Below, piece after piece: positions 22,601 through 38,198 of a stretch of 64,000 nt of DNA; position 1 is the first letter of the stretch; every line of letters starts with the position of its first letter. The DNA comes from an uncultured bacterium (lineage in GTDB: Bacteria > Omnitrophota > Omnitrophia > Omnitrophales > Aquincolibacteriaceae): contig CAYSSX010000001.1 of assembly GCA_964434115.1 (NCBI GenBank), positions 397,911-461,910 of the forward strand, in the 5' to 3' direction. The notes under the pieces were generated by a model. The model was not told the origin of the DNA and did not search any database. It worked only from the letters and a program-made list of their open reading frames with translations. A program made the position numbers and the translations under genes.

Positions 22601-25600
22601 CCGGCCTCGTCTTTATGCTCGATAAACAACCCTTCGTTGAGGCCTTCCACAAGGCTGAATGTTTTCTCCATCTCGTTTCCGCCGTCAAGGGTATAAAGCA
22701 CCTTCAGCGTAGCTTGGTTCGTTGTTTCAGGAATATCGCTCGTGATCTTGATCGCGGGCGGAATTGTGTCGCGGCGGATACTCACCACCACTTCGGACTT
22801 GTTTCCCGCGTTATCCACGGCTGTGATCGTGTGCCGGTTATCGCCTTCCTGATCCAGCGAAACCTTTAACTCCTTAGCCTCGCCATCCAGCAGGTACTTC
22901 ACGATCTCGCTGAGGCGATTGCTCAAAGAGACATGCTCCACACCTGAAATTTTAGGCGCGATGGTATCACGCGTAATCACAATGCGGATTTCGGTCTCGT
23001 TACCCGCTCCATCCACTTCTTTAATGACATGACGGTTTTCGCCTTCCTGATCAAGCGGAACCTTCAACTCCTTGGCCTTACCGTCCACCAGGTACTTCAC
23101 AACCGCGCTATCCTGGTTGGTCAAGGACACGTGTTCCAGCCCGGTAATTTCAGGGGCCTTGGTGTCTCTTACCACTAGAAGTTCGATGCGGCTTTCATTC
23201 CCGGCCTTATCCAGCGCCGTGACCGCGAGCTTGTTATCCCCTTCGTTCTGGAGCGCGAATTCCTTACGCATGGCTTCGCCATCCACGGTGTAGCTGACCA
23301 CAACGCTCATCTGGTTGGTCAAAGACACATGCTCAATGTTCGCGATTTCAGGCGCAATCGTGTCCAGCGTTACCTTGAATTCAAACAGGCCGATATTCCC
23401 CGCTGCGTCCACGACCTGAATTTTAAGTTTGTTTTCACCCTCGGTTAAATCAAAATGCGCGTGAAGAATTTCCCCGTTGGCGCCTGTGGGATCCAAAACA
23501 TAATCCACCACCAGGTGTTTCTGATTGGTCAGAGCCGGAATTTCGGAAACCACTTTAATCTGCGGCCCGGCATTGTCCATGAGCACAGAAAGGACCCGCT
23601 CGGAAATATTACCCGCTTCGTCCTTGGCTTCGATCCGGAGTTCATTCTTTCCAGCCGCGAGCTGGAAGGTTTTCTCCATTTTGACCCCATCCGCCGTGTA
23701 AATCACAACCAGACTCCGCTGATTCGTGACTTCCGGAACATCACTTAATATCTCAATCGCGGGCGCCTGGGTATCGCGCACCACGATAAGCGCTATTTCG
23801 CTTTTGTTTCCCGCCTCGTCCGACGCGGTAATCAAAAGTTCATTTTTACCTTCGTTCGGGAGATCAAACGCCTGCTCTCTCGAAACACCGTCCAGCAGGT
23901 ACTTCACCACGGTCTTCAACTGATTGGTTAAAGACACATGCTCCACGTTTGTGATTTCGGGGGCTTTGGTATCCAGCGTGACGTCAAACTCGTAAAAGCC
24001 AATGTTACCCGCCTCATCCATGGCTTCAATCTTGAGTTTGTTTTTGCCTTCCGTTAATTTAAACTCCGCGCGGCGTTTCTGCCCATTGGACATTTGCGGA
24101 TCCACAATGTACTCAACAACAAGCTGCTCCTGGTTAGTCAGGGACGGAATCTGGGAAATCACCTTGATCACCGGCGCCTCATTGTCCATAAGCACCGCGA
24201 AATTCATTTCCGCGGCATTGCCCGCTTCATCCTTGGCCGCAATTTGAAGTTCATTCATTCCCGGCTTGAGTTCAAAACGCTTTTCCATTTCCTTTCCATC
24301 CACTTTATAGAGGACGGACAGGACCTGGGCGTTTGTGATTTTAGGAATCACACTCGTAATCGCGATTTCCGGAGCCTTGGTATCCCGGACAATCTCAATC
24401 ACAACTTCGGTCTGGTTCCCGGCTTCATCCGACTCCGTAATCACGTGCCGGTTCTTGCCTTCCTGATCCAGCGCGAGCTTCAATTCCTTGGCCTTTCCAT
24501 CCACCAGGTACTTCACAAGCGCGCTGAGCTGATTGGTCAAGGACACATGCTCGACACCCGAAATTTCGGGCGCCTTCGTATCCAATGTTATTTTGAATTT
24601 ATACGAACCCTTATTCCCTGCCGCATCCATGGCATCAATCGAGAATTCGTTCCCGCCTTCTTTCAAATCAAATTCGGCCTTAAGAACGGCACCCGTGGCG
24701 GAATTGCCATCCACCAGATAATTCACAACAAGATGCTTTTGGTTTGTAATCGACGGAATCTCGGAAATCACGCGGATGACCGGCGCCACATTGTCCATGA
24801 TCACAAAAAGACTGAGTTCCGCGGCATTCCCTGCCTCATCCTTGGCCGCTAGGCGAAGCTCGTTTTTTCCGGGCGCGAGCTCGAACTTCTTTTCCATCTC
24901 TTTTCCGTCCACGGTGTAAAGCACGGTCAACACCTGGGCGTTCGTAATTTGAGGGATCTCGCTCTTGACCGCAATTTCAGGCGCCTTTGTGTCACGCCGG
25001 ATCATAAGCGCTCTTTCGATCTTGTTCCCGGCTTCGTCTGAAGCCGTAAGCACAAAATGGTTTTCACCCTCTTCCGGAAGTTCAAAGGTCTGTTCCATGG
25101 GGATCCCGTCCAGCAGGTACTTCACCAGCGCCTTGAGCTGGTTGGTCAGGGACACATGCTCGACGTTTGTGATTTCGGGGGCTTTGGTATCCAGCGTTAT
25201 TTTAAATTCATAAACACCGACATTGCCCGCTTCATCCTTGGCTTGAATCGTGCGGGTGTTTGGGCCTTCCTCTAAATCAAACTCCGCGCGCAGTTTTTGG
25301 CCATTGGTCATTTGCGGGTCAATCACATACTCCACCACAAGGTGTTTCTGGTTGGTCAAAGCGGGAATCTGGGAAAGAACCCGGATCACAGGCGCCTCAT
25401 TGTCCCGGAGCACCCCGAAATTCATGACAGACATATTCCCAGCCTCGTCCTTGGCCGTGATCTGAAACTGATTCATTCCGGGCTTAAGCTCAATCTTCAT
25501 CTCCATGTCTTTTCCATCCACAGCATAGAGCACGGTCAAAACCTCGGCATTGGTGACTTTAGGAACATCGCTCCTCAACTTGATCACAGGCAGAGTGGTA

Positions 25601-28071
25601 TCCCGCGTAATGACGAAAGCCATTTCACTTTTGTTTCCCACCTCGTCTTGTGCTGTAATAACAAAGTGGTTTTCCCCTTCTAGTTCGAGCTTGAACGATT
25701 GCTCTTTGGCAATTCCATCCAGCGTGTAAGTCACCATAACTTCGAGTTTATTGGTCAAAGCCGGAAACTTTAAATTGGCGATCACCGGCCCTTCCTTATC
25801 CATGGCGTTTGCAATGCGCTTAATTAAAATCGCAAGGTCCCGGTCGTCAGCCGCTCCATCCTGGTTAAGATCAAGAAGAGCTGCCGTTTCCTTGGGCAGA
25901 TAAGCCAGAACACTCAGCGCCTGCGCGTAACCTGTTTTCGCGGCAGTAAAGTCATCATTGTTGGTAATCCCATCGCGGTTTATATCCGCAGAGAACGTGC
26001 CGTCCGCCTTAAGACTGATCCTTTTGGCGAATTCCGAGGCCACTTCAATTTCATGGCGAAGCGCGCCCTGCAAGGCCAGCGCTTCTTCGATCAAGCCCCG
26101 TTCAGACACAATCGCGTTCTTCAGCCCATCAATCACAGCATCGACATTAACTGCCGGCCGGCCCATGGCCCGAAGGGAAAGCGCCGGATGTTCAGGCACC
26201 TTGAACGCCGAGGGATCTGTTCCGGGAACCAAAGCTGCAGCAATTTTGTTCAACACCTCAACATACGCCATCAGGGCTTTAATGTCCTGCTGGTCCAGAG
26301 CCGCGTCACCCTTCATCCAATTCATGATCCACGTCACACCGTCAATGTCCTGCTTGGCCTTGGCATGAATTCCAGCGGCCGCTTCCAGAATCTCCAGCAT
26401 TCCCGGGATGTTTTTATCAAAACCATTGATCTTCTCAAAAAGCCCGCCTTCTTCACTTGCCAGCGGATTGATAACACCCGCGATTCTCTCAGCCTCTTGA
26501 TTTTTTGAAGCCGCGGATTGTTGAAACTGCGAGATCTCGGCAGACGCGGCATTGATCATCGCCGCCACTTTCGCGCGCAGGGCTTCAAGCTCGCCTTGAT
26601 TATCGATGACCGGCTTCAGACGGATCACACCGTCGGCCATGAGCTCAATCTCCCACGCCTTACCGCCGATTTTCACCTTCCGGTTTTCCGGAAAGTTTTC
26701 AACAAGAACCTGATCCTGCTGCCAGGTTTTGCTCACCGGGTCCTGATACCAGGAACTAAAACTGAGCCCGTACACAGGCTTGCCCATGCGTCCATCCGCC
26801 ATGTAAGTGCCCGCTGCCGTGATGCCATTTTTGTTCGAATAAGTCATACCGTATGACACGCTGTAATTCCGGCCCTCCACCGCAACACTCTGCCAGTTCT
26901 TGAACCGGAGCTTTTTCCATTGATCAGGCGTGCTTCCGCCGTTGCTGTTCACCACAATGTCCACGTTTTGATAATCGTTTTTATTGCGGACAAGACGCGG
27001 CACATAAATTCCGGCGTCATTGCGCACCGATTCAACACTGTAAAGCTGGTTGTTCCACGCGGCCGGAAGACCCGCGTAAGTCACGGCGGTCTTCATAAAA
27101 ACCGAGGAGTGTGATTCCATCATTTGTCCGAGTTCCTTATAATCAGGGTTCCCGGATTCCAGGCTCGCTCTTACTTTCAGATACAAATCCTTGATGCCTT
27201 GAATCTCTTCACCGCCATAAAGCGAAACCGAGGTCTTGACCGGTTTGCCATTAGCGTCCTGACTGCCGATGTCTGTCCAGATGGAATACTGCGTGACCGG
27301 CCTGCTGCCCGGCCCCGCGCCCGCCATAGTCAAAGAGTTGTTCACTGCCCCTGTGTCTGCATATAAAGACGGGTTGTAGGTAGAACGGTTCACGGAAATC
27401 GTGTGATCCATCCACCGGCCCTGCGCGTCATAAGTAAAAGAGCGGCGGTAAAGCGAGTCGGAGGAGCCATAGCGCTCAGAGCTTGACGCGTACTCAATGT
27501 AGCTCAAGCGCTGTTGTGAAAATCCATAGCGCTGTTCATAGTTGTAACCGGTCTGATTCATGATCACGTCAAAACGTTTCAAGGCAGTCTGCGAGCCTGA
27601 CTTTTCAACAAGGATATTCCAGCTATACCCATTGGTGACATTGTCGATCTCGATGCTCTGCGTAGCTTCGTCAAACTGGCCGGTGTAGGTCTGCTTTTGA
27701 CCGTATTGCGTCAGCGTGACACTGGCCTTCCCGCCTTCCTTGACTTCCACACTCAGAAAATCTTTTCCATCCGGGGAAACGGGTGCCTTGGCGGAAAAAG
27801 GACGCGTTGCCGGCTTCGGGGGTTCACTCATGGAAATAGGGTTGTCATCCAGGGAAAGCGTGTGGAGATCTGCAGGCGGGATCGTGTCCTGCGGCTCCGT
27901 GTTTTTCTGCTGTGTTGGGTCCGTTGTGGCGGATTTCTCCTGCACAGGGGTAATAAGCCCGGTCGGAGAACCACCATCCGCCAGAGCTGCCGGCATGACC
28001 GGAACTGAAAAGAAGGCCAGGCTTACCGCGAGAAAGCCCGCCAGAACGCGATTTTCGAAGTGGTTTTTCAT
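19618..28071 (-). CDS. giant cell-surface adhesin-like protein with dockerin-like Ca-binding segment, tandem Ig-like domain repeats and YD-repeat-like region
   Basis: Start MKNHFENRVLAGFLAVSLAFFSVPVMPAALA at 28071 with a signal peptide and a GAGAGGGA ribosome-binding site. A dockerin-like pair DINRDGITNNDD ... DLNQDGAADDRDL is encoded at about 25810-26000. At least 15 tandem roughly 100-aa repeats of the type TLDTKAPEI..VEHVSLTNQ / IRVISEIP.LTNQKHLVV.Y are encoded at about 22700-25750. The C-terminal third contains YD-repeat-like motifs (YDANGVLKEIRYDA..., KDAQGRVL...). Confidence 0.8.
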   Translation of the reverse strand: MKNHFENRVLAGFLAVSLAFFSVPVMPAALADGGSPTGLITPVQEKSATTDPTQQKNTEPQDTIPPADLHTLSLDDNPISMSEPPKPATRPFSAKAPVSPDGKDFLSVEVKEGGKASVTLTQYGQKQTYTGQFDEATQSIEIDNVTNGYSWNILVEKSGSQTALKRFDVIMNQTGYNYEQRYGFSQQRLSYIEYASSSERYGSSDSLYRRSFTYDAQGRWMDHTISVNRSTYNPSLYADTGAVNNSLTMAGAGPGSRPVTQYSIWTDIGSQDANGKPVKTSVSLYGGEEIQGIKDLYLKVRASLESGNPDYKELGQMMESHSSVFMKTAVTYAGLPAAWNNQLYSVESVRNDAGIYVPRLVRNKNDYQNVDIVVNSNGGSTPDQWKKLRFKNWQSVAVEGRNYSVSYGMTYSNKNGITAAGTYMADGRMGKPVYGLSFSSWYQDPVSKTWQQDQVLVENFPENRKVKIGGKAWEIELMADGVIRLKPVIDNQGELEALRAKVAAMINAASAEISQFQQSAASKNQEAERIAGVINPLASEEGGLFEKINGFDKNIPGMLEILEAAAGIHAKAKQDIDGVTWIMNWMKGDAALDQQDIKALMAYVEVLNKIAAALVPGTDPSAFKVPEHPALSLRAMGRPAVNVDAVIDGLKNAIVSERGLIEEALALQGALRHEIEVASEFAKRISLKADGTFSADINRDGITNNDDFTAAKTGYAQALSVLAYLPKETAALLDLNQDGAADDRDLAILIKRIANAMDKEGPVIANLKFPALTNKLEVMVTYTLDGIAKEQSFKLELEGENHFVITAQDEVGNKSEMAFVITRDTTLPVIKLRSDVPKVTNAEVLTVLYAVDGKDMEMKIELKPGMNQFQITAKDEAGNMSVMNFGVLRDNEAPVIRVLSQIPALTNQKHLVVEYVIDPQMTNGQKLRAEFDLEEGPNTRTIQAKDEAGNVGVYEFKITLDTKAPEITNVEHVSLTNQLKALVKYLLDGIPMEQTFELPEEGENHFVLTASDEAGNKIERALMIRRDTKAPEIAVKSEIPQITNAQVLTVLYTVDGKEMEKKFELAPGKNELRLAAKDEAGNAAELSLFVIMDNVAPVIRVISEIPSITNQKHLVVNYLVDGNSATGAVLKAEFDLKEGGNEFSIDAMDAAGNKGSYKFKITLDTKAPEISGVEHVSLTNQLSALVKYLVDGKAKELKLALDQEGKNRHVITESDEAGNQTEVVIEIVRDTKAPEIAITSVIPKITNAQVLSVLYKVDGKEMEKRFELKPGMNELQIAAKDEAGNAAEMNFAVLMDNEAPVIKVISQIPSLTNQEQLVVEYIVDPQMSNGQKRRAEFKLTEGKNKLKIEAMDEAGNIGFYEFDVTLDTKAPEITNVEHVSLTNQLKTVVKYLLDGVSREQAFDLPNEGKNELLITASDEAGNKSEIALIVVRDTQAPAIEILSDVPEVTNQRSLVVIYTADGVKMEKTFQLAAGKNELRIEAKDEAGNISERVLSVLMDNAGPQIKVVSEIPALTNQKHLVVDYVLDPTGANGEILHAHFDLTEGENKLKIQVVDAAGNIGLFEFKVTLDTIAPEIANIEHVSLTNQMSVVVSYTVDGEAMRKEFALQNEGDNKLAVTALDKAGNESRIELLVVRDTKAPEITGLEHVSLTNQDSAVVKYLVDGKAKELKVPLDQEGENRHVIKEVDGAGNETEIRIVITRDTIAPKISGVEHVSLSNRLSEIVKYLLDGEAKELKVSLDQEGDNRHTITAVDNAGNKSEVVVSIRRDTIPPAIKITSDIPETTNQATLKVLYTLDGGNEMEKTFSLVEGLNEGLFIEHKDEAGNIGRSEIRAITYKPDAPQNHRPVANAASFKVNQNGEITGFVTGSDEDGNVLSFAAASQPKHGRLEINAETGAFTYKPDADYSGTDEFSFTVNDGKEISEAAVIAFEIIPAGHVPVFKSIPGASVLPVESLAAKVSAVLEASDPDGGAVTFSIKEILRDGVKVNTPARMTLTSDGKFDWTPEPAHAGQYVITFSAKDIEGYSAEQQMSLDVKTPAICAGNSEVCTFLKAQAALGLAAGNVGDYYHNRDGKHTDFGVSSLPQLSRMNDGWAAEYATYPDRVIIGNSSTSGSAAGTSNPGSLESSYGAQATYNQYRANALYLYPEHIDHDAVDYYFSNNAYLLTSQGSSGSEMDEVTKLLYTLAAFRPEVKKTLKEKGLLMPTLEMIFRMTRVGGDEDKYLTGEAHPRAFNDSGNFMAMVRMANAMTLDDIPAFAQIKVEDENFGGTGNFDNKTEKMYDTPAAVSRIHRGFEYTKTMIVDAGASFDVNGHPLEFDWRVLRGDADHVRITKLNDEGSRVKIEIDYHEEASAPGSSLGSSILSNRVDVGLFVNNGHTWSSPAFISSTTMRNETRDYDANGVLKEIRYDADALSGQLGFAKGWVKDTFNESGGWTRLMSDGKTIDFTAGGYQVLTKDAQGRVLSAKAVTYAYSSSTRKIGFTPSGNVAFYEYADDSDRKGRISMIETASYRGRMIYNADGQLTGIKVESLAGQSLSRVTFGADGAVFLSAVEGESSLRISGNRTLGELIEMAGSGAAVIHILFKTAELLAAETGVAAAEFELRNMSFSQSPTDSPYDGYMGNLSMMFHNIRSGKDSWAYSWTQRAYPLDLYPDYPSQQGFHVALLNTAGNSYTYHDFSMAGAFMGTHAQDYEAKMKIRNLAAFQFEKDSGLSAKDYTFVVSGSGGRDGADGSGQGPGNSGYRIEVRGKEGNLVSVYEVNLRPYYSGSNGTVTGKGGTMYVINDASHKDDLLGYILLNGEYKLAWESHQGVETCHNHDVC
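22700..25750 (-). repeat. coding tandem repeats (roughly 300-bp units) inside the adhesin gene
   Basis: The roughly 100-aa domain units recur with nucleotide-level similarity, which is also visible as recurring antisense ORF fragments at 23455, 24094 and 25297. Confidence 0.7.
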
Positions 28072-28260
28072 GATTGAGATCCCTCTCTGTCTTCCTGGAA
28101 TAATTTCGATTTCCATCACCTGCTTAACAACTTTTAACAGCCTATTAATAAGTCTGTTTTAAAACCTTAACACCACATTCCAAGAGATGCAAAAAAGAAG
28201 CAAAAAAAGAGCAAAAAATAGCAGCAAAAACAGTCTGCATGTTATGAATGTATGTTTAAG

Positions 28261-28375
28261 CCGAAACCGATTTCGGGTTTCGGCAATAGGTGAAATAGCT
28301 GAAATGGCTTTTCATTTCAGCATAAGGTGAAGTGAAAACTCCGGCCTTAGGGAGTTATCACTTCATCGCGCGAGG
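28261..28375. repeat. bipartite hairpin repeat element (variant with a class-2 second hairpin)
   Basis: Perfect palindrome CCGAAACCGAtttCGGGTTTCGG, then CAATAGGTGA, then the hairpin GCTGAAATGgcttttCATTTCAGC, then ATAAGGTGA, then the stem AGTGAAAACTCC / GGAGTTATCACTT with loop GGCCTTAG, then CATCG. Confidence 0.65.
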
Positions 28376-28421
28376 AGGCCTGCTGAAGATAGGATTTTTC
28401 GGGACTGGCGGGGCAGAGACA

Positions 28422-28479: not shown

Positions 28480-28986
28480 TTACTTTTCAGTCTTGGCCCA
28501 GATCTCCTTAGCCTTGTTCATTTGCCCCTCATTGAGAACGGCCCTCAGCTTGGCGTAATCAGCGAGTGTCGCTTTGGCCGAGGTCGCCCAACCGGCTGAA
28601 GCTTGATCAATGAACGCATTTAAAGCCGCCATATCCAGCACGGGTTCTGACATTTTATCCATCAGATCCATCTGGAAAATTTCCATCTCCGCCTTGGAGC
28701 GGATCATGGACTTCTTGGTCGTGCTCTTAATGGCCTTGATCTGGGAGACCTGATCGTCAGAAAGCCCGATCGCTTCCTTGTTGGAAAGGAAGAATTTTGC
28801 CTTCTTCATGATTTTCGCGGCAATAGGACATTCCCCCTCGCTTGAACAATCGTCCCCTTGATCGCACCCTTTCTTGTCATGAAAGGAGCAGCGCCCGCCT
28901 TCACATTCATGATTCGCAAACGCGGGGGCTCCAAGAAGAGACAACATCATCAACAAACCCAGCAAAAATCCAATCGACTTTTTCAT
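28480..28986 (-). CDS. ZraP/CpxP/Spy-family periplasmic protein with an N-terminal Cys-rich metal-binding segment
   Basis: Signal peptide, then a Cys/His cluster (HECEGGRCSFHDKKGCDQGDDCSSEGECP), then two LxxxQ helical motifs (LSDDQVSQIKAI and LNEGQMNKAKEI) typical of the ZraP/CpxP heavy-metal-resistance family. Confidence 0.6.
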   Translation of the reverse strand: MKKSIGFLLGLLMMLSLLGAPAFANHECEGGRCSFHDKKGCDQGDDCSSEGECPIAAKIMKKAKFFLSNKEAIGLSDDQVSQIKAIKSTTKKSMIRSKAEMEIFQMDLMDKMSEPVLDMAALNAFIDQASAGWATSAKATLADYAKLRAVLNEGQMNKAKEIWAKTEK

Positions 28987-29093: not shown

Positions 29094-29513
29094 TCAAATC
29101 AGGAGAGTGCGAAAAAGCAGAAAAATCGGCTGCGGCGGAAGCACATCCCTGCCGGAAACCGGAGCAAAAGAAACCTGAGGAACTTGAAAAACTGCAGGCA
29201 CTGAATGCTCTGCGGCTGAAAACGCATTTAAAGAAGCACTGGGAACAATCCCTTGAAAGCGCCCGGCTTGTTCAGCCGCCGAACTGTGGTAAAAGCACTG
29301 GCCGGCGCAATCATTCCCCGCTTTCGCAGTCTTTTTGGCGCAGCAGTCATGCCCGGAAACCGCCATTTGATGGCCTTTCGGAGCTGTTTCAGACGCGTGC
29401 GCGCAGCGGCAAAACGCCGGGACAGCCGTGAAAATAAAAAAAAGCAGCGTAAAAATCGCTGCTTTTCGCTGGCCGCTAAACCGGGATTTAGGAAAGGGTT
29501 TTATCGCTTTCAT
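29094..29513 (-). CDS. small Cys/His-rich membrane-anchored protein, copy 2 (paralog of 18912..19343)
   Basis: Start MKAIKPFPKSRFSGQRKAAIFTLLFFIFTAVPAFCRCAHASE. It shares the RKAA(V/I)FTLLFF, C.CAHA.E, HDCC.K and C-terminal (I/L)(F/Y)(L/V)LFR(T/S)LLI blocks with copy 1. The listed ORF extends to 29549. Confidence 0.5.
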   Translation of the reverse strand: MKAIKPFPKSRFSGQRKAAIFTLLFFIFTAVPAFCRCAHASETAPKGHQMAVSGHDCCAKKTAKAGNDCAGQCFYHSSAAEQAGRFQGIVPSASLNAFSAAEHSVPAVFQVPQVSFAPVSGRDVLPPQPIFLLFRTLLI

Positions 29514-29553
29514 AGTGGACAGGCTAACCCTGTTCTTAAAACAAGTCAAGCAG

Positions 29554-29831
29554 CCGATTAGTTTGAGGGCAAGCCGAGGCTTGCCCCTTACTAATCGGCA
29601 ATAGGTGAGATGTTAATCTCATGCACCTGGGGATTAACATCTCATCGTCGAGCCAGCTGAAATAGCTTTTCATTTCAGCACTAGGTGAAGTGAAAACTCC
29701 GGCCTTAGGGAGTTATCACTTCATCGCACGAGGAATAACTGTAAGCTTCAGGCGGGAATGCAGCCGGTAAGCACCGCTTACCGGCAACAGGTGAATATTA
29801 CTCTCACGCTTCTGGGGAGTAATATTTCACC
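29554..29831. repeat. dense array of bipartite hairpin repeat elements (two class-1 units and one class-2 unit)
   Basis: Palindrome 29554-29597; a class-1 unit at 29598-29646 (CAATAGGTGA, stem GAGATGTTAATC / GATTAACATCTC, loop TCATGCACCTGGGG, CATCG); hairpin 29655-29678; a class-2 unit at 29679-29731; palindrome CCGGTAAGCaccGCTTACCGG at 29764-29784; a class-1 unit at 29785-29831 (CAACAGGTGA, stem ATATTACTC / GAGTAATAT, loop TCACGCTTCTGGGG, TCACCG). Confidence 0.7.
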
Positions 29832-30062
29832 GCCCAGGAAACGGCGTAAAGTGAAGTGAATCCTTTTATTGAATTTGGGTCGTTTGGGAGGGGTACCTAA
29901 TTTTAGTTGTTTGTTTTTGCAACCCAAACATCCTTTTGTTTCAGCTGAACAGCCCCCCTCCTCCTTGTGTAAAACAACGGATGTGTTATCGTTTACATGA
30001 GAGTTGCTCATAACCTTCTGTGAGTGGCCGAAGTTCCAATCATAAAATACCCGGGGGTTCAC

Positions 30063-30749
30063 ATGAAGCACTTCAAACTTTTTTCTCTTAATCTTGTTTT
30101 TTGCATGTCCATTCTTTCCCTGCCTCTTCACGCTCAAGGGGAAATGGGCTTTGTTGAACAAGGTGCGGAGCCAGTTCAGCCTGTTGCCACGGTAGAGAAC
30201 AGCGCGCCAGAGACTTCAACGGACCAGCCTACGCAAGGAGATGCCTTTTCTGATTTTATGCAGCCCGGTGCCTTAGCAGCGGCATCTGAGGATCCCATGG
30301 AAGGGACTGCAGAAAATCCGCCTGCAAACAATCCCAACAAAACTGAAACAGTCACAGTTGCACCGGACGGCACAAAGACCGTTATAACGGAGGAAATAGA
30401 AAAGGACAGCCAGGGCAATCAGAAGTCTCGAACGCTTTCAACCTCAGTTTACAACAGTGAAGGAACTCTTACGCATTGGGAGATGAGTTCTTTCGATGAA
30501 AATAATCAATTTGTTTTCAAAAGCTGGGATGACTTTAACAGTCAGGGATGGTTGATGGAACAAGGGACGGAATATGCTGATGGGAGCAAGGAAGTCACCA
30601 ACTACACCTATGATCCTGACGGCTATGTCATCGAGATCACTCAAGTGAAAGTCAAAGCAAACGGTGAGACTACTACTAAAATCGACAATCCGAAGAATTC
30701 GCTGTCCGCGAAAGAACTTATCATTAAGCAAAGTAAATCGAAAAAATAA
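30063..30749 (+). CDS. secreted hypothetical protein at the left end of the lower-GC island
   Basis: Start MKHFKLFSLNLVFCMSILSLPLHAQG gives a signal peptide. The protein is rich in Thr/Asn/Glu and has no catalytic motifs. Its GC content is lower than the flanking chromosome. Confidence 0.5.
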   Translation: MKHFKLFSLNLVFCMSILSLPLHAQGEMGFVEQGAEPVQPVATVENSAPETSTDQPTQGDAFSDFMQPGALAAASEDPMEGTAENPPANNPNKTETVTVAPDGTKTVITEEIEKDSQGNQKSRTLSTSVYNSEGTLTHWEMSSFDENNQFVFKSWDDFNSQGWLMEQGTEYADGSKEVTNYTYDPDGYVIEITQVKVKANGETTTKIDNPKNSLSAKELIIKQSKSKK

Positions 30750-30830: not shown

Positions 30831-30874
30831 CCGAAAATAAGAACTTTTCGGCTTTGGTACCCGGTACCTTTTTT
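30831..30874. terminator. bidirectional terminator between two convergent genes
   Basis: Hairpin CCGAAAAtaagaacTTTTCGG (30831-30851), then palindrome GGTACCcGGTACC (30856-30868), then TTTTTT (30869-30874), which overlaps the stop codon of the minus-strand ATPase gene. Confidence 0.5.
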
Positions 30875-33203
30875 ACACATCAGCTGCCCCGAAATACATA
30901 TCTTTAAAACTCAAACGGGATGTATTTAAACCATATTTTTGAAATTTATATCTCATAAAGGCAGACATTTTATCCTCGTGAGTTGATAAAAATATCTGTC
31001 GGTCAGAAAATTCATTCCTTAGCAAATCAACCAAACTCGATATGTTTAACTCATCAAGCGTCTGAACAGGATCATCAATAAACAACATTTTATTCTGAGA
31101 GTATCTTTTATTTAGAGTTAAAGTAAAAGCTAAAATCAAAACCGCTAATTGCCCGGAACTCATTGTGAAAATTGCATCATAGGATTTCTTGGGGTCGGGT
31201 AAAAACCTAATGCCATTTTTATCAGAAATAAATAACCCCATCCCCTCTTGGCAGTCCTGAACAATCCGCCCCGAATATAAATGAAATAATATTTCAATAT
31301 CAGCAATAATTTTTCTTTGATACTCCAAAAGGGATTTCTCGTAAATCCTCTTAAGCTTATTTAGCCCATCCTTCATCTTTGAGGCATTCTCGAAGCGCCC
31401 CTGACTTTCATCATATTCTCTCTTTCGATCTTTTAAAGATTTACTCTGATGTAATGAATACTGCCATTTAATGTACTCTTTTTTCTCATCAATATCTTTA
31501 ATACTTATTTCCCTAACCAATTCTGATTTCTCATTAAAAAATTTCAGAAAAATGTCGGCAAAATACGGCTTTATCTTTGTCGCGTCTAAAGGTCGCTTTT
31601 GTTCTACTAATGCTTTTTTTAGAGATGCTAACTTTGAATCCAAATTCGATTTGGGCTCATCCAAATCCTGAACAATAATACCCTTTTGACGCAATTGCTC
31701 ACCAATAGCTATAAGTGTAGATTGATTGCGAACCGCAGCTTGAAGCCCAGCTACAAAAACCTCATCAATGGGGTTGCTAATTAAATAATCATTCAACATT
31801 TTCTTAATGGGGATAATGAACTCGGCCTCGAACCTTTCAACCAGTGATTTTAAATCTTTACCGGATTCTTCCGTTAATTTTCGAAAGCGATTCTGTTGAA
31901 CTTCAATTTGAAGCTTTAATACATCTAATGACACCCAGTCATGTCCGCACATCGGGCATTCTGTTTCTTTGCTTAATTCCGTAAAAGCAGTAAATATTCG
32001 AGCGAATGAGCTTCTGGAGTCTTCTAACTTAGCCACAATTTCTGAAAATTTATTTAGTGACGCGGATTGCTCAGCAATATTTTGCTTTACGCGATCATAT
32101 GCTTTAAAATCAATTTGATGAGATAAAACAGATTCAACCCTTGCTAAAACCACATTCTTGTCCAACGCAAATTTTAAGGTACCCTTATCAAACTCCGCCA
32201 AGATTCTTTTGATCTCCTGACGAATACTCAATTTATTCACATAAAGTTCAACATCATTTAAATGCTTCGAATACAAAATTATTTGTTTTAGAGAGGCCTC
32301 CTGACCGATCAAACCATCTAATTCGCGGTTCCTTTTCTCCTGTTCGAAAATATCAATATTACCTATAAGTGATTTAACTTTTTCCAACAAGCCATCTTCG
32401 CCAATCCAGCTAGCATACTGACCCTCTTTAAATTGCACTTGTTGTCTATCCCAATCAAAGTCGCCCCACGCGAAAAGCTTCGCGTATGCCACCTCGCGAA
32501 TATCACCTAACATCTCCGCCTCAATCGCTTCTATTTCTTTTTTTAAGATTTCTAGTCGGCTAGATTCAGCAGCGCCGCACAGTTCGCCGATCTTCGAAAT
32601 CGAATCTTTAATTTTATCTACTTGATTTTGGAAGCTAAGAGTATTGAACAAATAATCAATAGCATCTTTTCTTTCTCGATCTTTACATTTCAGCAAAGCA
32701 ATATTCTCTTCCTGCTCTACGTAATGGAGAAAACGAAAATTCTCACGGTAATTTAACCCTAACAACTCTTTCAAATAATCATTTTCATTCTTTACCAAAT
32801 TGCCTTCTGTAGCTTCAAAAGCTGTCAGTTCATATAATGGAGAGACGAATTCAGATATCCTCGTCTTTTGAGATAGCTCCAAACGAGTACTCTTCCTCAT
32901 CAATATTCTATCCTTACCATTAGCTTCGATTACGGCTTTGATAATAAGGTCACCGTCCTTGCGCCTACTATTTAAATAAGGATTTTCAGTAAAACTCTCA
33001 CGCCCATCTGTTGCAAGCTTGGCCCATTCTTCATACCTACGAATTTTCCCAGTAAGGAGTAGCTCCATAGCGTCAAAAAATGTGGTTTTCCCAAAGCCAT
33101 TCGGACCATCAAAAATAATAAAGTCCGAATCGTTAAGGTCAACCGAAAACGTTTGAAAAACCTTAAAATTTTCTATGTGAAATTTTCTAATTTTAATGCC
33201 CAT
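30873..33203 (-). CDS. SMC/Rad50-like ABC ATPase with a long coiled coil and a central CPxC hook (LmuB-like, Lamassu/ABC-3C-type defence ATPase)
   Basis: Walker A GPNGFGKTT; ABC signature MSSGQ; Walker B MLFIDDP; H-loop STHE. About 500 aa of coiled-coil sequence lie between the head halves. ETECPMCGHDW is encoded at about 31935-31967, at the midpoint, like a Rad50 zinc hook. The preferred start is MGIKIRKFHIENFKVF at 33203; the listed ORF starts at 33218. The gene is low in GC. Confidence 0.75.
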   Translation of the reverse strand: MGIKIRKFHIENFKVFQTFSVDLNDSDFIIFDGPNGFGKTTFFDAMELLLTGKIRRYEEWAKLATDGRESFTENPYLNSRRKDGDLIIKAVIEANGKDRILMRKSTRLELSQKTRISEFVSPLYELTAFEATEGNLVKNENDYLKELLGLNYRENFRFLHYVEQEENIALLKCKDRERKDAIDYLFNTLSFQNQVDKIKDSISKIGELCGAAESSRLEILKKEIEAIEAEMLGDIREVAYAKLFAWGDFDWDRQQVQFKEGQYASWIGEDGLLEKVKSLIGNIDIFEQEKRNRELDGLIGQEASLKQIILYSKHLNDVELYVNKLSIRQEIKRILAEFDKGTLKFALDKNVVLARVESVLSHQIDFKAYDRVKQNIAEQSASLNKFSEIVAKLEDSRSSFARIFTAFTELSKETECPMCGHDWVSLDVLKLQIEVQQNRFRKLTEESGKDLKSLVERFEAEFIIPIKKMLNDYLISNPIDEVFVAGLQAAVRNQSTLIAIGEQLRQKGIIVQDLDEPKSNLDSKLASLKKALVEQKRPLDATKIKPYFADIFLKFFNEKSELVREISIKDIDEKKEYIKWQYSLHQSKSLKDRKREYDESQGRFENASKMKDGLNKLKRIYEKSLLEYQRKIIADIEILFHLYSGRIVQDCQEGMGLFISDKNGIRFLPDPKKSYDAIFTMSSGQLAVLILAFTLTLNKRYSQNKMLFIDDPVQTLDELNISSLVDLLRNEFSDRQIFLSTHEDKMSAFMRYKFQKYGLNTSRLSFKDMYFGAADV

Positions 33204-33900
33204 TTTGATCACCTTCAAAAAACGGCCATAACAATTTGTAAAATTCGCTTGGCTTCATATTTTTTATATCACCCGATGAGACTTTATCGAGTACCGTCAT
33301 TAGCGATTTATTAACGTCTAGCATTCCATCTTTAGCCAAGGCCTTGTCATGCTCCTCAAGTAATGATTGCAGCCCTTGAGACTCACCAATATTAATTTTT
33401 ATGAAAGGCAATTTAATTGCTAATCGATAGATTAAAGATTGCCATGTTTTTACATAGGGATCATTTTTATAGTCATCAAATATTTGCTTAGAAACAATGC
33501 CGTCCTCTATGAATTTCGCGATGTCTCTTTCTGCAATTTGGTTTTGTAATTGCTGCAACTCTTTAGCAGCATAACCCAAAACATACTTTTTAAAAAAATA
33601 CGGGTCTTCCTCTATTTTCATTTTATTTTTTTTAAACTGTTCGCGCGGCACGCTTCCATCTGTTTCCCACAGCACCAACATCGAAAGATTTTTATCAACT
33701 CCAGGTTCAGAGCAAATTTTCTTACACTCGTTAAAATTAAAAGCCTGTTGCTCTAAAACCGAATCGATTTTGTCGGTTACTTTTATTACAAGCCAATACT
33801 GTTCGCGATTTTCGTTGGCACTCTCACAGAAAAGTCCGTTTTTAAATTCGAAAGTTTTAAATCCGTACCGCTCGAAAAGGATTTTTGTCAGCTCAAGCAT
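33193..33900 (-). CDS. small protein encoded between effector and ATPase (LmuC-like/middle component), function unknown
   Basis: 235 aa. It overlaps the upstream gene by 8 nt and the downstream ATPase by about 11 nt, consistent with a three-gene operon. It is low in GC and has no catalytic motifs. Confidence 0.5.
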   Translation of the reverse strand: MLELTKILFERYGFKTFEFKNGLFCESANENREQYWLVIKVTDKIDSVLEQQAFNFNECKKICSEPGVDKNLSMLVLWETDGSVPREQFKKNKMKIEEDPYFFKKYVLGYAAKELQQLQNQIAERDIAKFIEDGIVSKQIFDDYKNDPYVKTWQSLIYRLAIKLPFIKINIGESQGLQSLLEEHDKALAKDGMLDVNKSLMTVLDKVSSGDIKNMKPSEFYKLLWPFFEGDQNGH

Positions 33901-35176
33901 TGATAATTCCTTTCGCTTCAGCCAAAGGGATTAATGCGATTTTTTTCCATAATGTAATGCGATTATATTCGCTGGCTTTTTGAGAGTCATTTTTTGCTGT
34001 ATCTAAGACGTGAGGGGCTTTATCGGTAATAGAATCCACTTTTATATCGGTTGTGATTAGATTATCTCTTTCATAGCTAAGTCCCAAATCTGTTCGCAGG
34101 GCATTTTGAATGATTTTTTCACAAATAGCTGCATCATGGCTTGGACCGGCTTGAATAGCTGTCGGATAGTAGCGCTCAGATGCGCTCAAACATTCAAATA
34201 CGGATTTAGCTTCTTTAAAATCTAGCTGTTTAAGCTCGGCTAAGATTTTAAAAAAAGCACCCTGCACTTCCGATTGGATTAAAGTGTGGTTATGATAATC
34301 CGTTATCGAGTCAAATTTTATTTCTCGATGAGGTGTTATATTTTGAATGAAGGTCACAATGCTTTTAGTATCTAATTTTTCTATCGTCTCAAAGTAAGAA
34401 GCCATTTTTTTACAAAGTTCAGAATCGCTAAACTTTTCACAAAATTCCAGGTAATACCTGCGAAAATCCATTCGAATCAAATATAAAAAATATTTAGCAT
34501 CGCCACTTTGACTTAAGTTAGCATTCAAAATTGATGTAAATTCGGTCAGGTTTATTTTTTCTCGAAAAGCAACGGCGGCCATACTTCCTTTACTTTTTTG
34601 ACCCATCGCATGAATTTTCAAAACCCTGTCGTGGACAAGTTCAAACAAGAAGACCTTAACCTTCTGAATATAAGCGCTGTCACATCTCCAAGACTTTTCA
34701 GGTTCTGGAGAATGTTCAGAAAAATACTTCCTCACTTGTTCTTCTATTTTTGAATCAATGCCATCGACAGGACATTCATACCTTTCCTCATACTTGTAAA
34801 CCTTGACGGGGGAGAATTCAGATTCTATTTCACTAATAGGTTTGTTCGTAATCTCATTAGCCAAATGAAAAAAGGCGCGATCACAACCGTATTCAGAAGC
34901 GCGATTTTTTAATTTTTCAAAAGCACTATTTCCAGCCGAATCGTTATACCCACTAAAAGGTCCTTTTGCATGCGCTTTCACTTGGTGAAGAGATATTATT
35001 TCGTTTTCTTTTTTCAAAAGAGCAAAATCCTCTAAAGAATCTAATTGGAGATAGCAATCTTCCTGGGGGCGTTCGCACAAGGTCTTGATGACGTGATATA
35101 TAGCAACTTTCCCTTGATACACATAACCGCTCCATGAAGGAATTGCGGTATCTGGGAAGGCGGAGGCTTCGGGCAT
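33893..35176 (-). CDS. LmuA-like effector with an N-terminal Cap4-type (DUF4297-like) PD-(D/E)xK nuclease domain
   Basis: The N-terminal roughly 90 aa read SWSGYVYQGKVAIYHVIKTL...LQLDSLEDFALL...IISLHQVKA, which fits the GxxYQ ... E.(E/D)D ... QxK pattern of Cap4/LmuA nuclease domains. The roughly 330-aa C-terminal region is of unknown function. It lies 3 nt downstream of the preceding gene. Confidence 0.55.
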   Translation of the reverse strand: MPEASAFPDTAIPSWSGYVYQGKVAIYHVIKTLCERPQEDCYLQLDSLEDFALLKKENEIISLHQVKAHAKGPFSGYNDSAGNSAFEKLKNRASEYGCDRAFFHLANEITNKPISEIESEFSPVKVYKYEERYECPVDGIDSKIEEQVRKYFSEHSPEPEKSWRCDSAYIQKVKVFLFELVHDRVLKIHAMGQKSKGSMAAVAFREKINLTEFTSILNANLSQSGDAKYFLYLIRMDFRRYYLEFCEKFSDSELCKKMASYFETIEKLDTKSIVTFIQNITPHREIKFDSITDYHNHTLIQSEVQGAFFKILAELKQLDFKEAKSVFECLSASERYYPTAIQAGPSHDAAICEKIIQNALRTDLGLSYERDNLITTDIKVDSITDKAPHVLDTAKNDSQKASEYNRITLWKKIALIPLAEAKGIINA

Positions 35177-35179
35177 TAT

Positions 35180-36436
35180 TTATTCTTCCTTTGTATCATC
35201 GACTGGTAACTCCAATGGTTTTATTGCTTGAAGCGCATTACCAGCTAACCCCTCTAGATCCCCATACATGCCAGCCGTATTTGAGACGATTCGTTCAATT
35301 TGCTTTTGCCTTTTATCCCAAATGCGTTGCATGGCTCTTTTTTCGGCATCGAGATCTTCCTGCATAGTTCGGAAAGCTTCGATAATCGCTGTAACCTTAT
35401 TCCGAAATTCCGAACCTGTCACATACCGATAAATTAGTTCTTTTTTATCATCTTTGCTGCTTTCAATTTCCCGCGCGGTAGCCACTTGTATTAAAACCAT
35501 TCTTAACGCCAAAGCGAGGCTTAACGCAGAGGGAATGTCCGTTACCCACACGTCTTGTATTTGTCTAAAATGATGAAATCCCGGAGGAAGCGTTTCTGAT
35601 ACTAAAACAGACAGATCTGCTTTAGCTTCTCGCTGATCGTCTTTAAGCTTTAACAACCAAGATTCAGTCCAGTTCTTAGCCCGTTTGGTTTCCCAAAGGA
35701 TTTTTCCGCATACACGACCCGATTGCGTCCTGACAGTCTGTAAAATATCCCCGCCACGAACCCCCTTAGAAACCGGTTCAATTTCATCAAAAGGAAATTC
35801 TCGTCTGAAAGCAGCCTCAAGCTCAAGCTCTAATACTTCCCCCTGTGTTTGCTGCGAACCTTGCTCCATTTTTCGTTTAAGATCCTCAATCTGTTTTAAA
35901 GCGTCTGTTAACTTCTTTTCTTTTTCCGCATCCTTAAGCTTGTGCTGCTCTTCTAAACGGACAAACAGAGCATGCTCTATCTTCGCTCGTTCCTCATCAA
36001 GCTTTCTTGCCATATCCAACTCCAGAGATCTTTCCTTCTCTTCGAGTAAGTGTTGACGTTTGCGCAACTCAACTTCGTTATCCTGCGCAACCTTCAAACG
36101 CGCTCTCGCGGCATCAGCCTGCGCTTTCAGGTCTGCGAGCTCGACATCAACTGCTTCTTTGGCTTCCTTCTGAAGCTTTGTCTCCAATAACTTTCGTTGT
36201 TCTTTAAATCTCTGTTCTATTTCTAGCTCTCTTTGCACCAGCGCTTGGCGTTCGGCTTCGATTTTAGTTGCAAGCGATTTGTCTTTTTCCGCCAACTGTG
36301 ACCGCAAAGCCGCTTTTTCTTTATCCAAGGCCTGAAGATACTTTTGACGAGTTCTCTCTTCAATATCATGAGAAAGAGCTTCGGTAAGTGGTATTAGCTC
36401 ACCACATTTGGGACATTTAATTGATTCTTGGGCCAT
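35180..36436 (-). CDS. DUF2130-like protein: N-terminal zinc ribbon, long coiled coil and C-terminal PD-(D/E)xK-like nuclease fold
   Basis: CPKCGELIPL zinc-ribbon at the N-terminus, then about 200 aa of Glu/Lys/Arg/Leu-rich coiled coil, then a C-terminal GGDILQ...ILWETKRAKNW motif (D...ExK). Confidence 0.55.
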   Translation of the reverse strand: MAQESIKCPKCGELIPLTEALSHDIEERTRQKYLQALDKEKAALRSQLAEKDKSLATKIEAERQALVQRELEIEQRFKEQRKLLETKLQKEAKEAVDVELADLKAQADAARARLKVAQDNEVELRKRQHLLEEKERSLELDMARKLDEERAKIEHALFVRLEEQHKLKDAEKEKKLTDALKQIEDLKRKMEQGSQQTQGEVLELELEAAFRREFPFDEIEPVSKGVRGGDILQTVRTQSGRVCGKILWETKRAKNWTESWLLKLKDDQREAKADLSVLVSETLPPGFHHFRQIQDVWVTDIPSALSLALALRMVLIQVATAREIESSKDDKKELIYRYVTGSEFRNKVTAIIEAFRTMQEDLDAEKRAMQRIWDKRQKQIERIVSNTAGMYGDLEGLAGNALQAIKPLELPVDDTKEE

Positions 36437-36457
36437 ATTATCCTTCGCACATCTCGG

Positions 36458-37357
36458 TCAAATGATGGTTGCGTTTACTCTATCTATAAGCTGTTTCTTT
36501 AAATCATTCTCTTCTTCCCATAAAATGTGACTGAATTGCCGCGTATCAAAATGCAGGGTCTCGCCTTTTTTGCAAACCCAGATTACTTCTTTACCGATTC
36601 CTTTTGCATACCCCGCTTCGTAGTATGCACTCGGACGTTCACCGCTTAACTCAGCAACTACGAACTTGCTCTTTTTTATACCCGAAATTATCAGATTTGT
36701 TACATCATCGTTTGTTTGCTCACCTTTAACACGATATGCCTCATAGCCACAAGTGGCCAGCGCTTCAGCAATCTTTTCATAGGCAAAATCATAATTAGGT
36801 GAAAAATTCATAGCAACAAAACACAATCTCGCATTTACATTTATTTTTTCTAAATCATAAAAATGCCGCCATCCCGTCATTGTTAACCTGTATTCGAATA
36901 TAGAGCTTGCTGCACTTTTCGATCTACCCTCGAACAGTTTTTCAGACATAAGATATTTAAGAATATCTGACAATTCTTGTGCGCTGGGTGAAAAAGTCAG
37001 CGAATAATCATTATCGCGATCAATATCTATATATTGTCCAAACGCATTACTCTTTTTGCCAATATATGTAACTATTTTGTCAATTTTATCCGGAACTTTG
37101 CGGGGTATATCCGCACCATTTAGAATACCGCTGATACTTTCCGTAGTAATAAGAATAGTATTCGCGTTGCGCTCTGTTCGCCACCGCAGCACGCCAGAGA
37201 TTTCAGCTCTTCGCTCTGTTACTGAGCCTGCTAAGCAAGATCCCGTTATAGAGTACTTACCGCATCTTTTACATTCGATATGAAAGCAATCCCTTAGAGG
37301 CTCACGATCGAATTTCGAGTATTTCTTTCCGCAAAACGGACAGTTGTTCTCAGTCAT
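36458..37357 (-). CDS. zinc-ribbon protein with a C-terminal nucleoside 2-deoxyribosyltransferase/Rcl(DNPH1)-like domain
   Basis: The N-terminus has two Cys pairs (CPFCGKKY...CFHIECKRCGKY). The C-terminal domain aligns with the Rcl/NDT fold: LCFVAMNF...Y...I, then FVVAELSGERPSAYYEAGYAKGIGKEVIWV (compare VVAEVTQPSLGVGYELGRAVALGKPILCL), then WEEENDLKKQLIDR. Confidence 0.6.
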   Translation of the reverse strand: MTENNCPFCGKKYSKFDREPLRDCFHIECKRCGKYSITGSCLAGSVTERRAEISGVLRWRTERNANTILITTESISGILNGADIPRKVPDKIDKIVTYIGKKSNAFGQYIDIDRDNDYSLTFSPSAQELSDILKYLMSEKLFEGRSKSAASSIFEYRLTMTGWRHFYDLEKINVNARLCFVAMNFSPNYDFAYEKIAEALATCGYEAYRVKGEQTNDDVTNLIISGIKKSKFVVAELSGERPSAYYEAGYAKGIGKEVIWVCKKGETLHFDTRQFSHILWEEENDLKKQLIDRVNATII

Positions 37358-37408
37358 TATCAGCCTTCGTTTTGAACGTTATCACTTTCCAAAAGCACCG
37401 GGTTCAAC

Positions 37409-37984
37409 TTAAGCTTTTCTTGAAGGCACTTTTTTATACTTTGCCTTCATGAACTTATTAAAGTGAGTTGTGTACCTGTCATGAAAGCACACTTTGAAGA
37501 TTTGCTTGTATGAGATCGAATAATCCTTTTCCCATGTAGCATCCGCGTCGTAACAGAATATTTTAAAACTCTCATCATGCATTTCAACAACTGGGCCGAC
37601 ATAAAACGCAGAATCTTTTCCGTTAGCGGATAGGGCTTCTATCCCGGGCCAAACTTGCCGTTTTTGACATTCTTTAATTACTTCCTTCAAAGATTCGCAT
37701 CTATCGACCCATCCAGGAATTTTCAATTTGTTAATGGCACCGTTAAACCTGATAATTTTGTTGTAGCAACTCTCAAAACGATTATCCCTGAATCCTTTGA
37801 TAAATCGCTTGGCCAAGATTGTAACGCCATCAAACTCCAACTCATCCATCTGAGCTAAAACAACAAAGGTCTGAGTTTCCTTTAACACGACTCCATCGTA
37901 ATGATCTCCATCCGGATGCCTTGTTTTAAGGCGGATAACCCATTTCTTTTTTAGCGATTTGCAGTAAATGTCAGATAGTTTCAT
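37409..37984 (-). CDS. hypothetical protein, first gene of the low-GC island operon
   Basis: The ORF extends to 38137, but the first roughly 50 codons are GC-rich flank-like sequence. The start MKLSDIYCKSLKKKWVIRLK at 37984 matches the island composition. No recognisable motif. Confidence 0.4.
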   Translation of the reverse strand: MKLSDIYCKSLKKKWVIRLKTRHPDGDHYDGVVLKETQTFVVLAQMDELEFDGVTILAKRFIKGFRDNRFESCYNKIIRFNGAINKLKIPGWVDRCESLKEVIKECQKRQVWPGIEALSANGKDSAFYVGPVVEMHDESFKIFCYDADATWEKDYSISYKQIFKVCFHDRYTTHFNKFMKAKYKKVPSRKA

Positions 37985-38140
37985 TTTCTTACGTACACTT
38001 TCCAAAAGTTCCGGGTTCAGTCTGGGTCTTTGCACCTGAACAAAAAGTTTTCCGCCGCGAGTTCCGCAGGCGCGCAGCGACGAGGACTGTCTGAGCGCCG
38101 GAAAAGCTTTTTGAGAAGGTGCTGACGCCTCAGCCATCCA

Positions 38141-38198
38141 GCCGACAACCTTCTAGTTGTCGGCACCGCCGTTCCCGAAGCTTCAGTCGGGAATGGCG
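38141..38198. repeat. inverted partial copy of the 19386-19617 repeat family
   Basis: GCCGACAACCttctagtTGTCGGC at 38141-38164 is the same palindrome as 19386-19409. GTTCCCGAAGCTTCAGTCGGGAATGG at 38171-38196 is the reverse complement of CCATTCCCGACTGAAGCCTCGGGAAC from the 63-bp tandem unit. Confidence 0.65.

Follow-up and report, generated by a model that had tools for sequence, protein, structure and literature searches.

The window analysed here is a 64,000-nucleotide (nt) stretch of contig CAYSSX010000001.1 (assembly GCA_964434115.1) from an uncultured Omnitrophota bacterium. Within it, three adjacent minus-strand genes, termed g4, g5 and g6, lie immediately upstream of a complete Lamassu operon, and an initial annotation had proposed them as a candidate for a new three-gene defence system. 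Our analysis makes it probable that this 2.8-kb stretch is not one system and that its three genes were acquired independently, each as a single-gene module. Overall, we regard the region as a mosaic defence island, in which a Lamassu operon is accompanied by two unrelated candidate single-gene modules and one orphan. The three genes, with lengths in amino acids (aa) and predicted domains, are:

35180..36436, minus strand: g4, DUF2130 protein of 418 aa, in which a CxxC knuckle and a coiled coil precede the C-terminal PD-(D/E)xK nuclease domain.
36458..37357, minus strand: g5, protein of 299 aa, in which a four-Cys zinc ribbon is followed by a MarR-like winged helix, a linker helix and, at the C terminus, an N-glycosidase domain resembling those of nucleoside 2-deoxyribosyltransferase (NDT), MilB and DNPH1.
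37409..37984, minus strand: g6, protein of 191 aa with two small Sm/Hfq-like (WYL-like) beta barrels and helices after each.

The separation of the three genes is carried by their distribution in related loci. For the g5 family, 82 loci (80 of them from one-genome-per-species contigs) and a further 52 from IMG/VR were collected, giving 134. The DUF2130 set comprised 80 metagenomic and 28 viral loci, 108 in all, and five short g6 loci were searched, with three long ones examined afterwards. When the six proteins of the island were used as tblastn queries, neither a second component nor Lamassu was found in the 134 g5-family, 108 DUF2130 and five g6 loci. Profile hidden Markov models (HMMs) of the three families were then compared with the six-frame open reading frames (ORFs) of all 247 loci (3.2 Mb); all expected self matches were recovered and there were zero cross matches. 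DUF2130 and Rcl/NDT-like proteins, for which a co-occurrence check had been suggested, were thus found together in 0/134 g5-family and 0/108 DUF2130 loci. Clustering of the ORFs within 10 kb in the 82 and 108 loci revealed no conserved partner of the g5 family or of DUF2130 in more than ~10% of loci. One plasmid of Bradyrhizobium encodes a DUF2130 protein as well as part of a g5-type domain, the two lying ~17 kb apart.

A single system built from a nuclease, a nucleotide-processing effector and a third partner would account for the common strand, the short gaps (51 and 21 nt), the low GC content of all three genes and the effector-type domains of g4 and g5. It is nevertheless highly improbable. 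The absence of co-occurrence in 247 related loci by both tblastn and profile HMM leaves it unsupported, each family is mostly found alone and with variable neighbours, and the contexts seen for g6 have no defence association. Occurrence elsewhere only as unlinked singletons was the outcome that the initial annotation had itself named as speaking against such a system. Setting it aside keeps a misleading entry out of defence catalogues. The same annotation had seen no obvious link between the three genes and the Lamassu trio.

The genes belong to a sharply delimited low-GC island at ~30.8-38.02 kb, in which the windowed GC content is 0.32-0.47 compared with ~0.53-0.55 outside. Six co-directional minus-strand genes fill the island in the order g6, g5, g4, LmuA, LmuC and LmuB. 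All three upstream ORFs are present on the minus strand as originally annotated, and their low GC content was likewise reproduced (0.387, 0.394 and 0.439 across the set, compared with ~0.53 for the flanking liv genes). The intergenic gaps are 51 nt from g6 to g5, 21 nt from g5 to g4 and 3 nt from g4 to LmuA. The island appears to be of mosaic origin, since g4 has a GC content of 0.44, g5 and g6 of 0.39 and the Lamassu genes of 0.36-0.38. In our model, the three modules were placed at the upstream end of a ~7.2-kb island whose downstream half is a self-sufficient Lamassu operon.

The best functional candidate among the three genes is g5. Its two zinc-ribbon Cys pairs, already noted in the initial annotation, are C6/C9 and C29/C32, which places the ribbon at residues 6-32. 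A MarR-like winged helix follows at ~88-158, then a linker helix and a C-terminal domain at ~175-299 that contains E247. The NDT/Rcl motif first quoted for this protein corresponds to residues 232-260. Sequence matches for the C-terminal domain are each weak and mutually consistent. The Pfam family Nuc_deoxyrib_tr (PF05014) gave E=2.2e-5 and 25.0 bits, under its gathering threshold of 28.8, and among the TIR families tested (PF13676 and PF01582) TIR_2 gave E=0.028 and 15.4 bits, not reaching its threshold of 28. A PADLOC effector model labelled TIR matched residues 203-288 at 1.7e-11; at E<=0.1, this model and ThsB were the only PADLOC matches. The phage protein family phrog_16139 matched at 7.6e-35. 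A profile built from 28 sequences of the g5 family had rat Rcl/DNPH1 as its best match among PDB sequences (E=9e-4), and in this alignment of the family profile with Rcl, ...FvVadft....YYEAGYAkglgkeVI is paired with ...VVVAEVTQPSLGVGYELGRAVALGKPIL. The structures nearest to the domain are those of MilB, NDT and DNPH1, with TIR domains slightly further away. The C-terminal domain of g5 thus has an NDT-type flavodoxin-like fold of the N-glycosidase type, as had been supposed from the motif.

Regarding the catalytic residues, the Rcl-like set expected from the initial annotation is present in part. E247 aligns with the nucleophile Glu of the Rcl GYE-LG motif (E93 in rat Rcl, E98 in NDT), where the helix that follows the third strand begins, and it is conserved without exception in the homologues that were collected independently of the motif (28/28). 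The expected Asp in the N-terminal strand is absent: the first strand reads CFVAMNF, with neither Asp nor Tyr and with F180 invariant. The position of the general acid, Asp69 in Rcl and Asp72 in NDT, is occupied by Ile223, and by Ile in 114/121 family members. The strand that carries Tyr7 in NDT and Tyr13 in Rcl lies outside all tool alignments of g5, and the Pfam match begins at residue 185. Among 121 further relatives, F180, A182, M183, F185, D/E236, H269, F270, D271 and W280 are near-invariant, all at positions outside the search pattern; in this set the conservation of Y245, E247, A248 and G249 is built in, as these residues make up the motif with which the loci were scanned. Judging from the sequence, Asp271 could act as an alternative acid.

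The g5 family has at least 578 genomic relatives in many phyla, and relatives in RefSeq are labelled ‘nucleoside 2-deoxyribosyltransferase’. Its architecture is not represented in PADLOC, and no description was found in the searchable literature. This widespread one-protein architecture combines a putative sensor of DNA-binding type with an NDT/MilB-like glycosidase domain. In 7/82 loci the g5 homologue lies in or beside a type I restriction-modification (R-M) operon, for example in the order HsdM-g5-HsdS-HsdR, a position typical of accessory defence genes. The 119 immediate neighbours of the family include HsdS (5), HsdM (4), ResIII/HsdR (4), MmeI/Eco57I (2) and integrases (3), along with AAA_16 (3), AlbA_2 (2) and Peptidase_M78 (2), and STAND ATPases were also seen. 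A relative on a Hydrogenimonas plasmid adjoins an ATPase and an HNH endonuclease, one from B. mycoides in the plasmid set sits in a prophage remnant, and the family is present in 52 IMG/VR contigs. Both the g5 and the DUF2130 family occur as singletons among R-M genes, OLD/ABC ATPases, SIR2-HerA, integrases and prophages, and on this genomic context it is reasonable to regard both as candidate stand-alone defence genes.

The R-M-embedded loci include L010, L014, L025, L061, L071 and L005, where the g5-family gene stands within or at the end of the operon. Genes for DUF4145 (HEPN-like) proteins were found near two of the closest g5 homologues (L001:6983-7633 and L002:398-1030), and the second of these loci, which has a DnaB-type helicase and numerous small ORFs, seems to stem from a phage. 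A 203-aa gene upstream of the homologue in L001 was considered as a g6 relative and a 400-aa gene downstream of the homologue in L002 as a DUF2130 gene; neither proved to be one.

We hypothesize that g5 is a one-protein abortive-infection (Abi) sensor-effector. Its N-terminal part, a zinc ribbon with a MarR-like winged helix, would sense a nucleic acid or a factor of the phage, upon which the C-terminal domain would cleave, by means of Glu247, the N-glycosidic bond of NAD+ or of a nucleotide. The essential metabolite would thereby be depleted and the infection aborted. This proposal draws on the fold with its invariant Glu, on the descriptive genomic context and on precedents. The similarity to MilB and DNPH1 favours nucleotide monophosphates as substrate, and NAD+ is equally possible because of the relationship to TIR domains and the missing Asp; we regard NAD+ as at least as likely as deoxynucleoside monophosphates. 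The earlier suggestion of a nucleotide-depleting effector therefore remains plausible for g5 as a single-gene module, not as part of a larger system.

There are three precedents: in retron Ec86 the NDT-like effector has a catalytic E106 (bioRxiv 10.1101/2023.08.16.553469), Swarozyc is a single-gene NADase defence protein with a TIR-like DUF4062 domain (bioRxiv 10.64898/2026.05.01.722283), and fusions of NDT domains to N-terminal domains of the Abi type were earlier predicted to be toxins (PMC3710099). Similar to g5, the effector of Retron-Eco1 (Ec86) has a nucleic-acid-binding part joined to a domain of NDT fold that carries a catalytic Glu; in the retron the output is toxic, and when triggered the effector depletes adenine-containing metabolites. 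In contrast to it, g5 lacks a partner in the form of a reverse transcriptase or msDNA (multicopy single-stranded DNA), bears a zinc ribbon and a MarR-like winged helix-turn-helix (wHTH), and shows the reverse order, with the sensor N-terminal and the NDT domain C-terminal. Swarozyc shares with g5 the single polypeptide, a glycosidase domain of the TIR/NDT superfamily with a catalytic Glu, an auxiliary sensing domain and a patchy distribution in defence islands. Unlike Swarozyc, g5 has no Pfam DUF4062 match at E<=0.1, and its catalytic-type domain is C-terminal and structurally closer to MilB/NDT than to TIR. The metabolic enzymes DNPH1/Rcl, MilB/BcmB and the NDTs differ from g5, which stays under the Pfam threshold and has Ile223 in place of Rcl Asp69, by lacking the fusion to a zinc ribbon and wHTH. 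The phosphate-binding Ser is Gly in most of the g5 family, which has invariant F-x-A-M-x-F and H-F-D motifs of its own. If g5 is active, the NAD+- and nucleotide-depleting effectors (TIR, SIR2, retron NDT and DUF4062) would gain another superfamily branch.

It is less likely that g5 is a nucleotide-responsive transcription factor, or a nucleotide-salvage or DNA-modification enzyme of phages and plasmids, instead of an immune effector, and we consider either alternative unlikely. The zinc ribbon and winged helix would then bind DNA and the NDT-like domain would sense or process a nucleoside. MarR-like wHTH modules classically bind DNA, and such a role would agree with the RefSeq name of the relatives, the presence of the family in viral contigs and in a PHROG, the many housekeeping genes among its neighbours and the missing general-acid Asp. 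The invariant catalytic-type Glu and the second invariant motif, H-F-D, point instead to catalysis. The strongest PADLOC sequence match of g5 is to a defence effector model, members of the family recur inside type I R-M operons, and no conserved target operon adjoins it. The Abi sensor-effector is accordingly the explanation that we prefer for g5.

Turning to g4, the protein matches Pfam DUF2130 (PF09903) with E=5.4e-71 and 239.3 bits, against a gathering cut-off of 26.7, and the match covers residues 166-411, corresponding to profile positions 2-253 of 255. D230, E249 and K251 form the D...ETK motif, an instance of the D...ExK pattern, and are invariant in an alignment of 25 homologues. With this conserved D...(D/E)xK triad, g4 belongs to the PD-(D/E)xK superfamily and is a predicted nuclease. 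DUF2130 was included in the 2012 survey of that superfamily, where its function was given as ‘unknown’ (PMC3424549). Residues 25-200 consist to 76% of E/K/R/Q/L/A and contain zero Pro, consistent with a coiled coil of ~175 residues. The coiled coil, the DUF2130 assignment and the D...ETK motif of the initial annotation were thereby upheld, and its zinc ribbon was not: the N terminus has one CPKC motif at residues 8-11 (C8, C11) and a conserved His23, and no second Cys pair, as two CxxC motifs or an equivalent would supply for a four-ligand ribbon, was found in the protein. By its sequence the N terminus looks more like a UBZ-type knuckle, to which there is a weak Pfam match (E=0.012). Alternatively, the CxxC...H is possibly a metal site spanning two chains.

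More than 3193 DUF2130 homologues of g4 were found at E<=1e-10, the nearest being 73% identical over its full length, and several of those with a named source are from Omnitrophota. No relatives were found in PADLOC, NCBIfam or the PDB sequences, where only coiled-coil noise was returned from the PDB, and the searchable literature that mentions DUF2130 contains no work on defence. Its association with defence islands appears to be unreported. RmuC and other coiled-coil PD-(D/E)xK nucleases resemble g4 in that a domain of restriction-endonuclease fold comes after an extended coiled coil. In contrast to RmuC, g4 belongs to the separate Pfam family DUF2130, has no RmuC match and carries its own N-terminal CxxC...H knuckle; DUF2130 also has no reported function, and its neighbourhoods here are those of defence islands and mobile elements. 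We propose that g4 may be a dimeric coiled-coil PD-(D/E)xK DNA nuclease with intact catalytic residues, which would act alone or with ATPases, possibly LmuB. Its family occurs singly in defence islands, on plasmids and in phages, and OLD/ABC-type ATPases are often its neighbours.

The neighbours of DUF2130 were scanned for 80 operon-like cases, which included AAA_21 (12), AAA_15 (8), AAA_13 (6), OLD-TOPRIM (4), SIR2_2 (4), PDDEXK_1 (4), GmrSD (2) and, on phage contigs, DNA polymerase A (3). The SIR2_2 neighbours come from four loci (L133, L137, L152 and L153), with HerA one gene beyond. Plasmid copies were found near NB-ARC, SIR2+PIN and AAA ATPase genes. In L086 (73% identity) and L087 (68%), which hold the closest homologues of g4, a gene for an OLD-family/AAA_15 ATPase comes 8-34 nt after the DUF2130 gene. 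These ATPase-linked loci are at L086:11275-13191 and L087:2062-3885. DUF2130 may therefore form two-gene modules with OLD/AAA_15 ATPases or with SIR2-HerA. An adjacent ABC-like P-loop protein was present in 12/61 DUF2130 loci and in 3/48 g5-family loci, which served as control (Fisher p=0.053); this test is crude, the count includes near-duplicate viral contigs, and the borderline adjacency is suggestive only.

These ATPase neighbours raise the alternative that g4 is an accessory nuclease of ABC/SMC-type ATPase defence systems and belongs here to Lamassu, through LmuB, and not to g5 and g6. The g4 stop lies 3 nt ahead of the LmuA start, ATPases closely follow the nearest homologues and are more frequent beside DUF2130 than in the control, and an AAA ATPase stands directly upstream of the DUF2130 gene on a Bradyrhizobium plasmid. 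We nevertheless find this affiliation doubtful. The ATPase enrichment is borderline and includes near-duplicates, Lamassu homologues are near DUF2130 in 0/108 loci, and most DUF2130 genes have different neighbours or none, some of them in phage genomes adjoining DNA polymerase A. Lamassu is moreover a complete system without g4, as established knowledge and the Pfam and PADLOC matches indicate. DUF2130 is a strongly conserved nuclease family whose neighbourhoods point to defence or mobile-element biology.

Beyond these single-gene modules, we put forward tentatively a broader possibility, which has the smaller share of our confidence. The family with zinc ribbon, winged helix and NDT-like domain might be an undescribed single-gene Abi system whose glycosidase is nearer to MilB/DNPH1 than to TIR, and DUF2130 might separately be an undescribed, very widely transferred defence-island nuclease that tends to pair with OLD/ABC-type ATPases.

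The remaining gene, g6, was initially reported to have no recognisable sequence features, and indeed no Pfam family was found for it; it has neither the Pfam match nor the helix-turn-helix (HTH) by which a WYL protein would be assigned. It also has no PADLOC match, and no relatives were found in viral contigs or plasmids. A word-indexed search returned two close homologues of 186-189 aa with 51% identity, and a profile search of 1.84 billion cluster representatives extended the family to 542 representatives at E<=1e-3, mostly of ~185 aa. Two members (P0175 and P0308, 372 and 400 aa) match the profile in two separate stretches and are tandem copies. A third protein (P0321, 275 aa) has an additional N-terminal region, fused to the domain, that contains a HEIAH metallopeptidase-like motif. 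In the loci seen, relatives of g6 stand alone between housekeeping genes; on three long contigs they lie among genes for HEAT-repeat, acetyltransferase, NUDIX, ankyrin, LeuCD and NQR proteins, and in these few contexts of ordinary chromosomal genes no defence signal was seen. Such contexts and the two tandem barrels set g6 apart from the WYL regulators of defence loci (BrxR, CapW and DriD) and from Hfq/Sm proteins, as do the lack of an HTH and of a Pfam WYL match. Binding of a ligand or of nucleic acid is likely for g6.

In the public record, the g6 protein is given as a 242-aa ORF that starts at 38137. Its 51 extra codons (37985-38137) lie in DNA of host GC content (0.536), and no homologue was found to share the extension. 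Because of the homologue lengths and the host-like GC content of this 5' extension, a start at 37984 is more likely than one at 38137. The gene with this start is exactly bracketed by two copies of a 24-nt direct repeat:

37383..37406, minus strand: downstream copy (TGAACCCGGTGCTTTTGGAAAGTG on the coding strand), ending 25 nt before the g5 start codon.
37996..38019, minus strand: upstream copy, ending 11 nt before the g6 start codon.

The repeat reads TGAACCCGG(AA/TG)CTTTTGGAAAGTG on the coding strand and its copies are identical at 22/24 positions. At <=3 mismatches there are two copies in the 64 kb of the window, compared with zero by chance in 100 shuffles, and the upstream one sits where the GC content drops from host to island level. 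The bracket suggests that g6 was inserted, or that a leader was duplicated, ahead of g5. The repeat is also a possible shared regulatory site; inspection by eye gave no convincing sigma-70 or sigma-54 promoter in it.

Several points weigh against three independent modules with roles in defence. The scans sampled at most 80 loci each, and the motif-seeded scans for g5 could miss divergent linked versions. The 3-nt spacing of g4 and LmuA, the common strand and the lack of internal terminators fit co-transcription with Lamassu, so that local functional coupling with Lamassu is possible. The defence role proposed for g4 and g5 is drawn from descriptive context and not from a genome-wide enrichment statistic, and many neighbours of the g5 family are housekeeping genes, such as those for tRNA synthetases and glycosyltransferases. 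Since g5 is below the Pfam NDT threshold and the general-acid Asp is missing, its chemistry may differ, and a role as a regulator that binds a ligand, instead of an enzymatic one, is conceivable.

The Lamassu (ABC-3C) trio is complete and occupies the adjacent downstream part of the island, as identified by Pfam and PADLOC:

30873..35176, minus strand: Lamassu trio, adjacent context genes.
33893-35176, minus strand: LmuA (Pfam CTD1 1.3e-43; PADLOC LmuA 4.9e-25).
33193-33900, minus strand: LmuC/MComp1 (Pfam MComp1 2.4e-12).
30873-33218, minus strand: LmuB (Pfam SMC_N/AAA_23 2.6e-15; PADLOC LmuB 7e-64).

The PADLOC Lmu models match only these three genes, and g4, g5 and g6 are none of LmuA, LmuB or LmuC. 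The start of LmuA lies 3 nt past the g4 stop in the same orientation. Co-transcription from g6 to LmuB is plausible; promoter-like and terminator-like sites in the region are not commoner than in shuffled sequence. In the first ~120 residues of LmuA, before CTD1, there are D...ED...QVK-like motifs, suggesting a nuclease effector of the Cap4/Mrr type.

Further downstream of the operon, a minus-strand ORF at 19618-28119 encodes 2833 aa with bacterial Ig-like and cadherin-like repeats (Big_13, Big_9, Cadherin_5 and He_PIG) and is a giant surface adhesin. Its proximity had prompted a reading of the region as a polymorphic-toxin cassette, which was rejected for this Ig-repeat protein, as no toxin domain was detected in it. 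The stretch of intermediate GC content from this ORF to Lamassu holds an 80-nt direct repeat at 28297-28376 and 29655-29734, with copies 95% identical and 1358 nt apart and shorter related copies nearby. The small ORFs of this stretch (28480-28986, 29094-29549, 29778-30161 and 30024-30749) have no Pfam or NCBIfam match, and no Rfam family or tRNA gene was found in the region searched. At the other side of the island, in the interval that separates it from the end of the livF-like gene, a perfect 9-bp hairpin without a T-run is present on the minus strand at 38141-38164 (GCCGACAAC-TAGAAG-GTTGTCGGC). This hairpin could serve as a terminator, or for recombination at the point of insertion.

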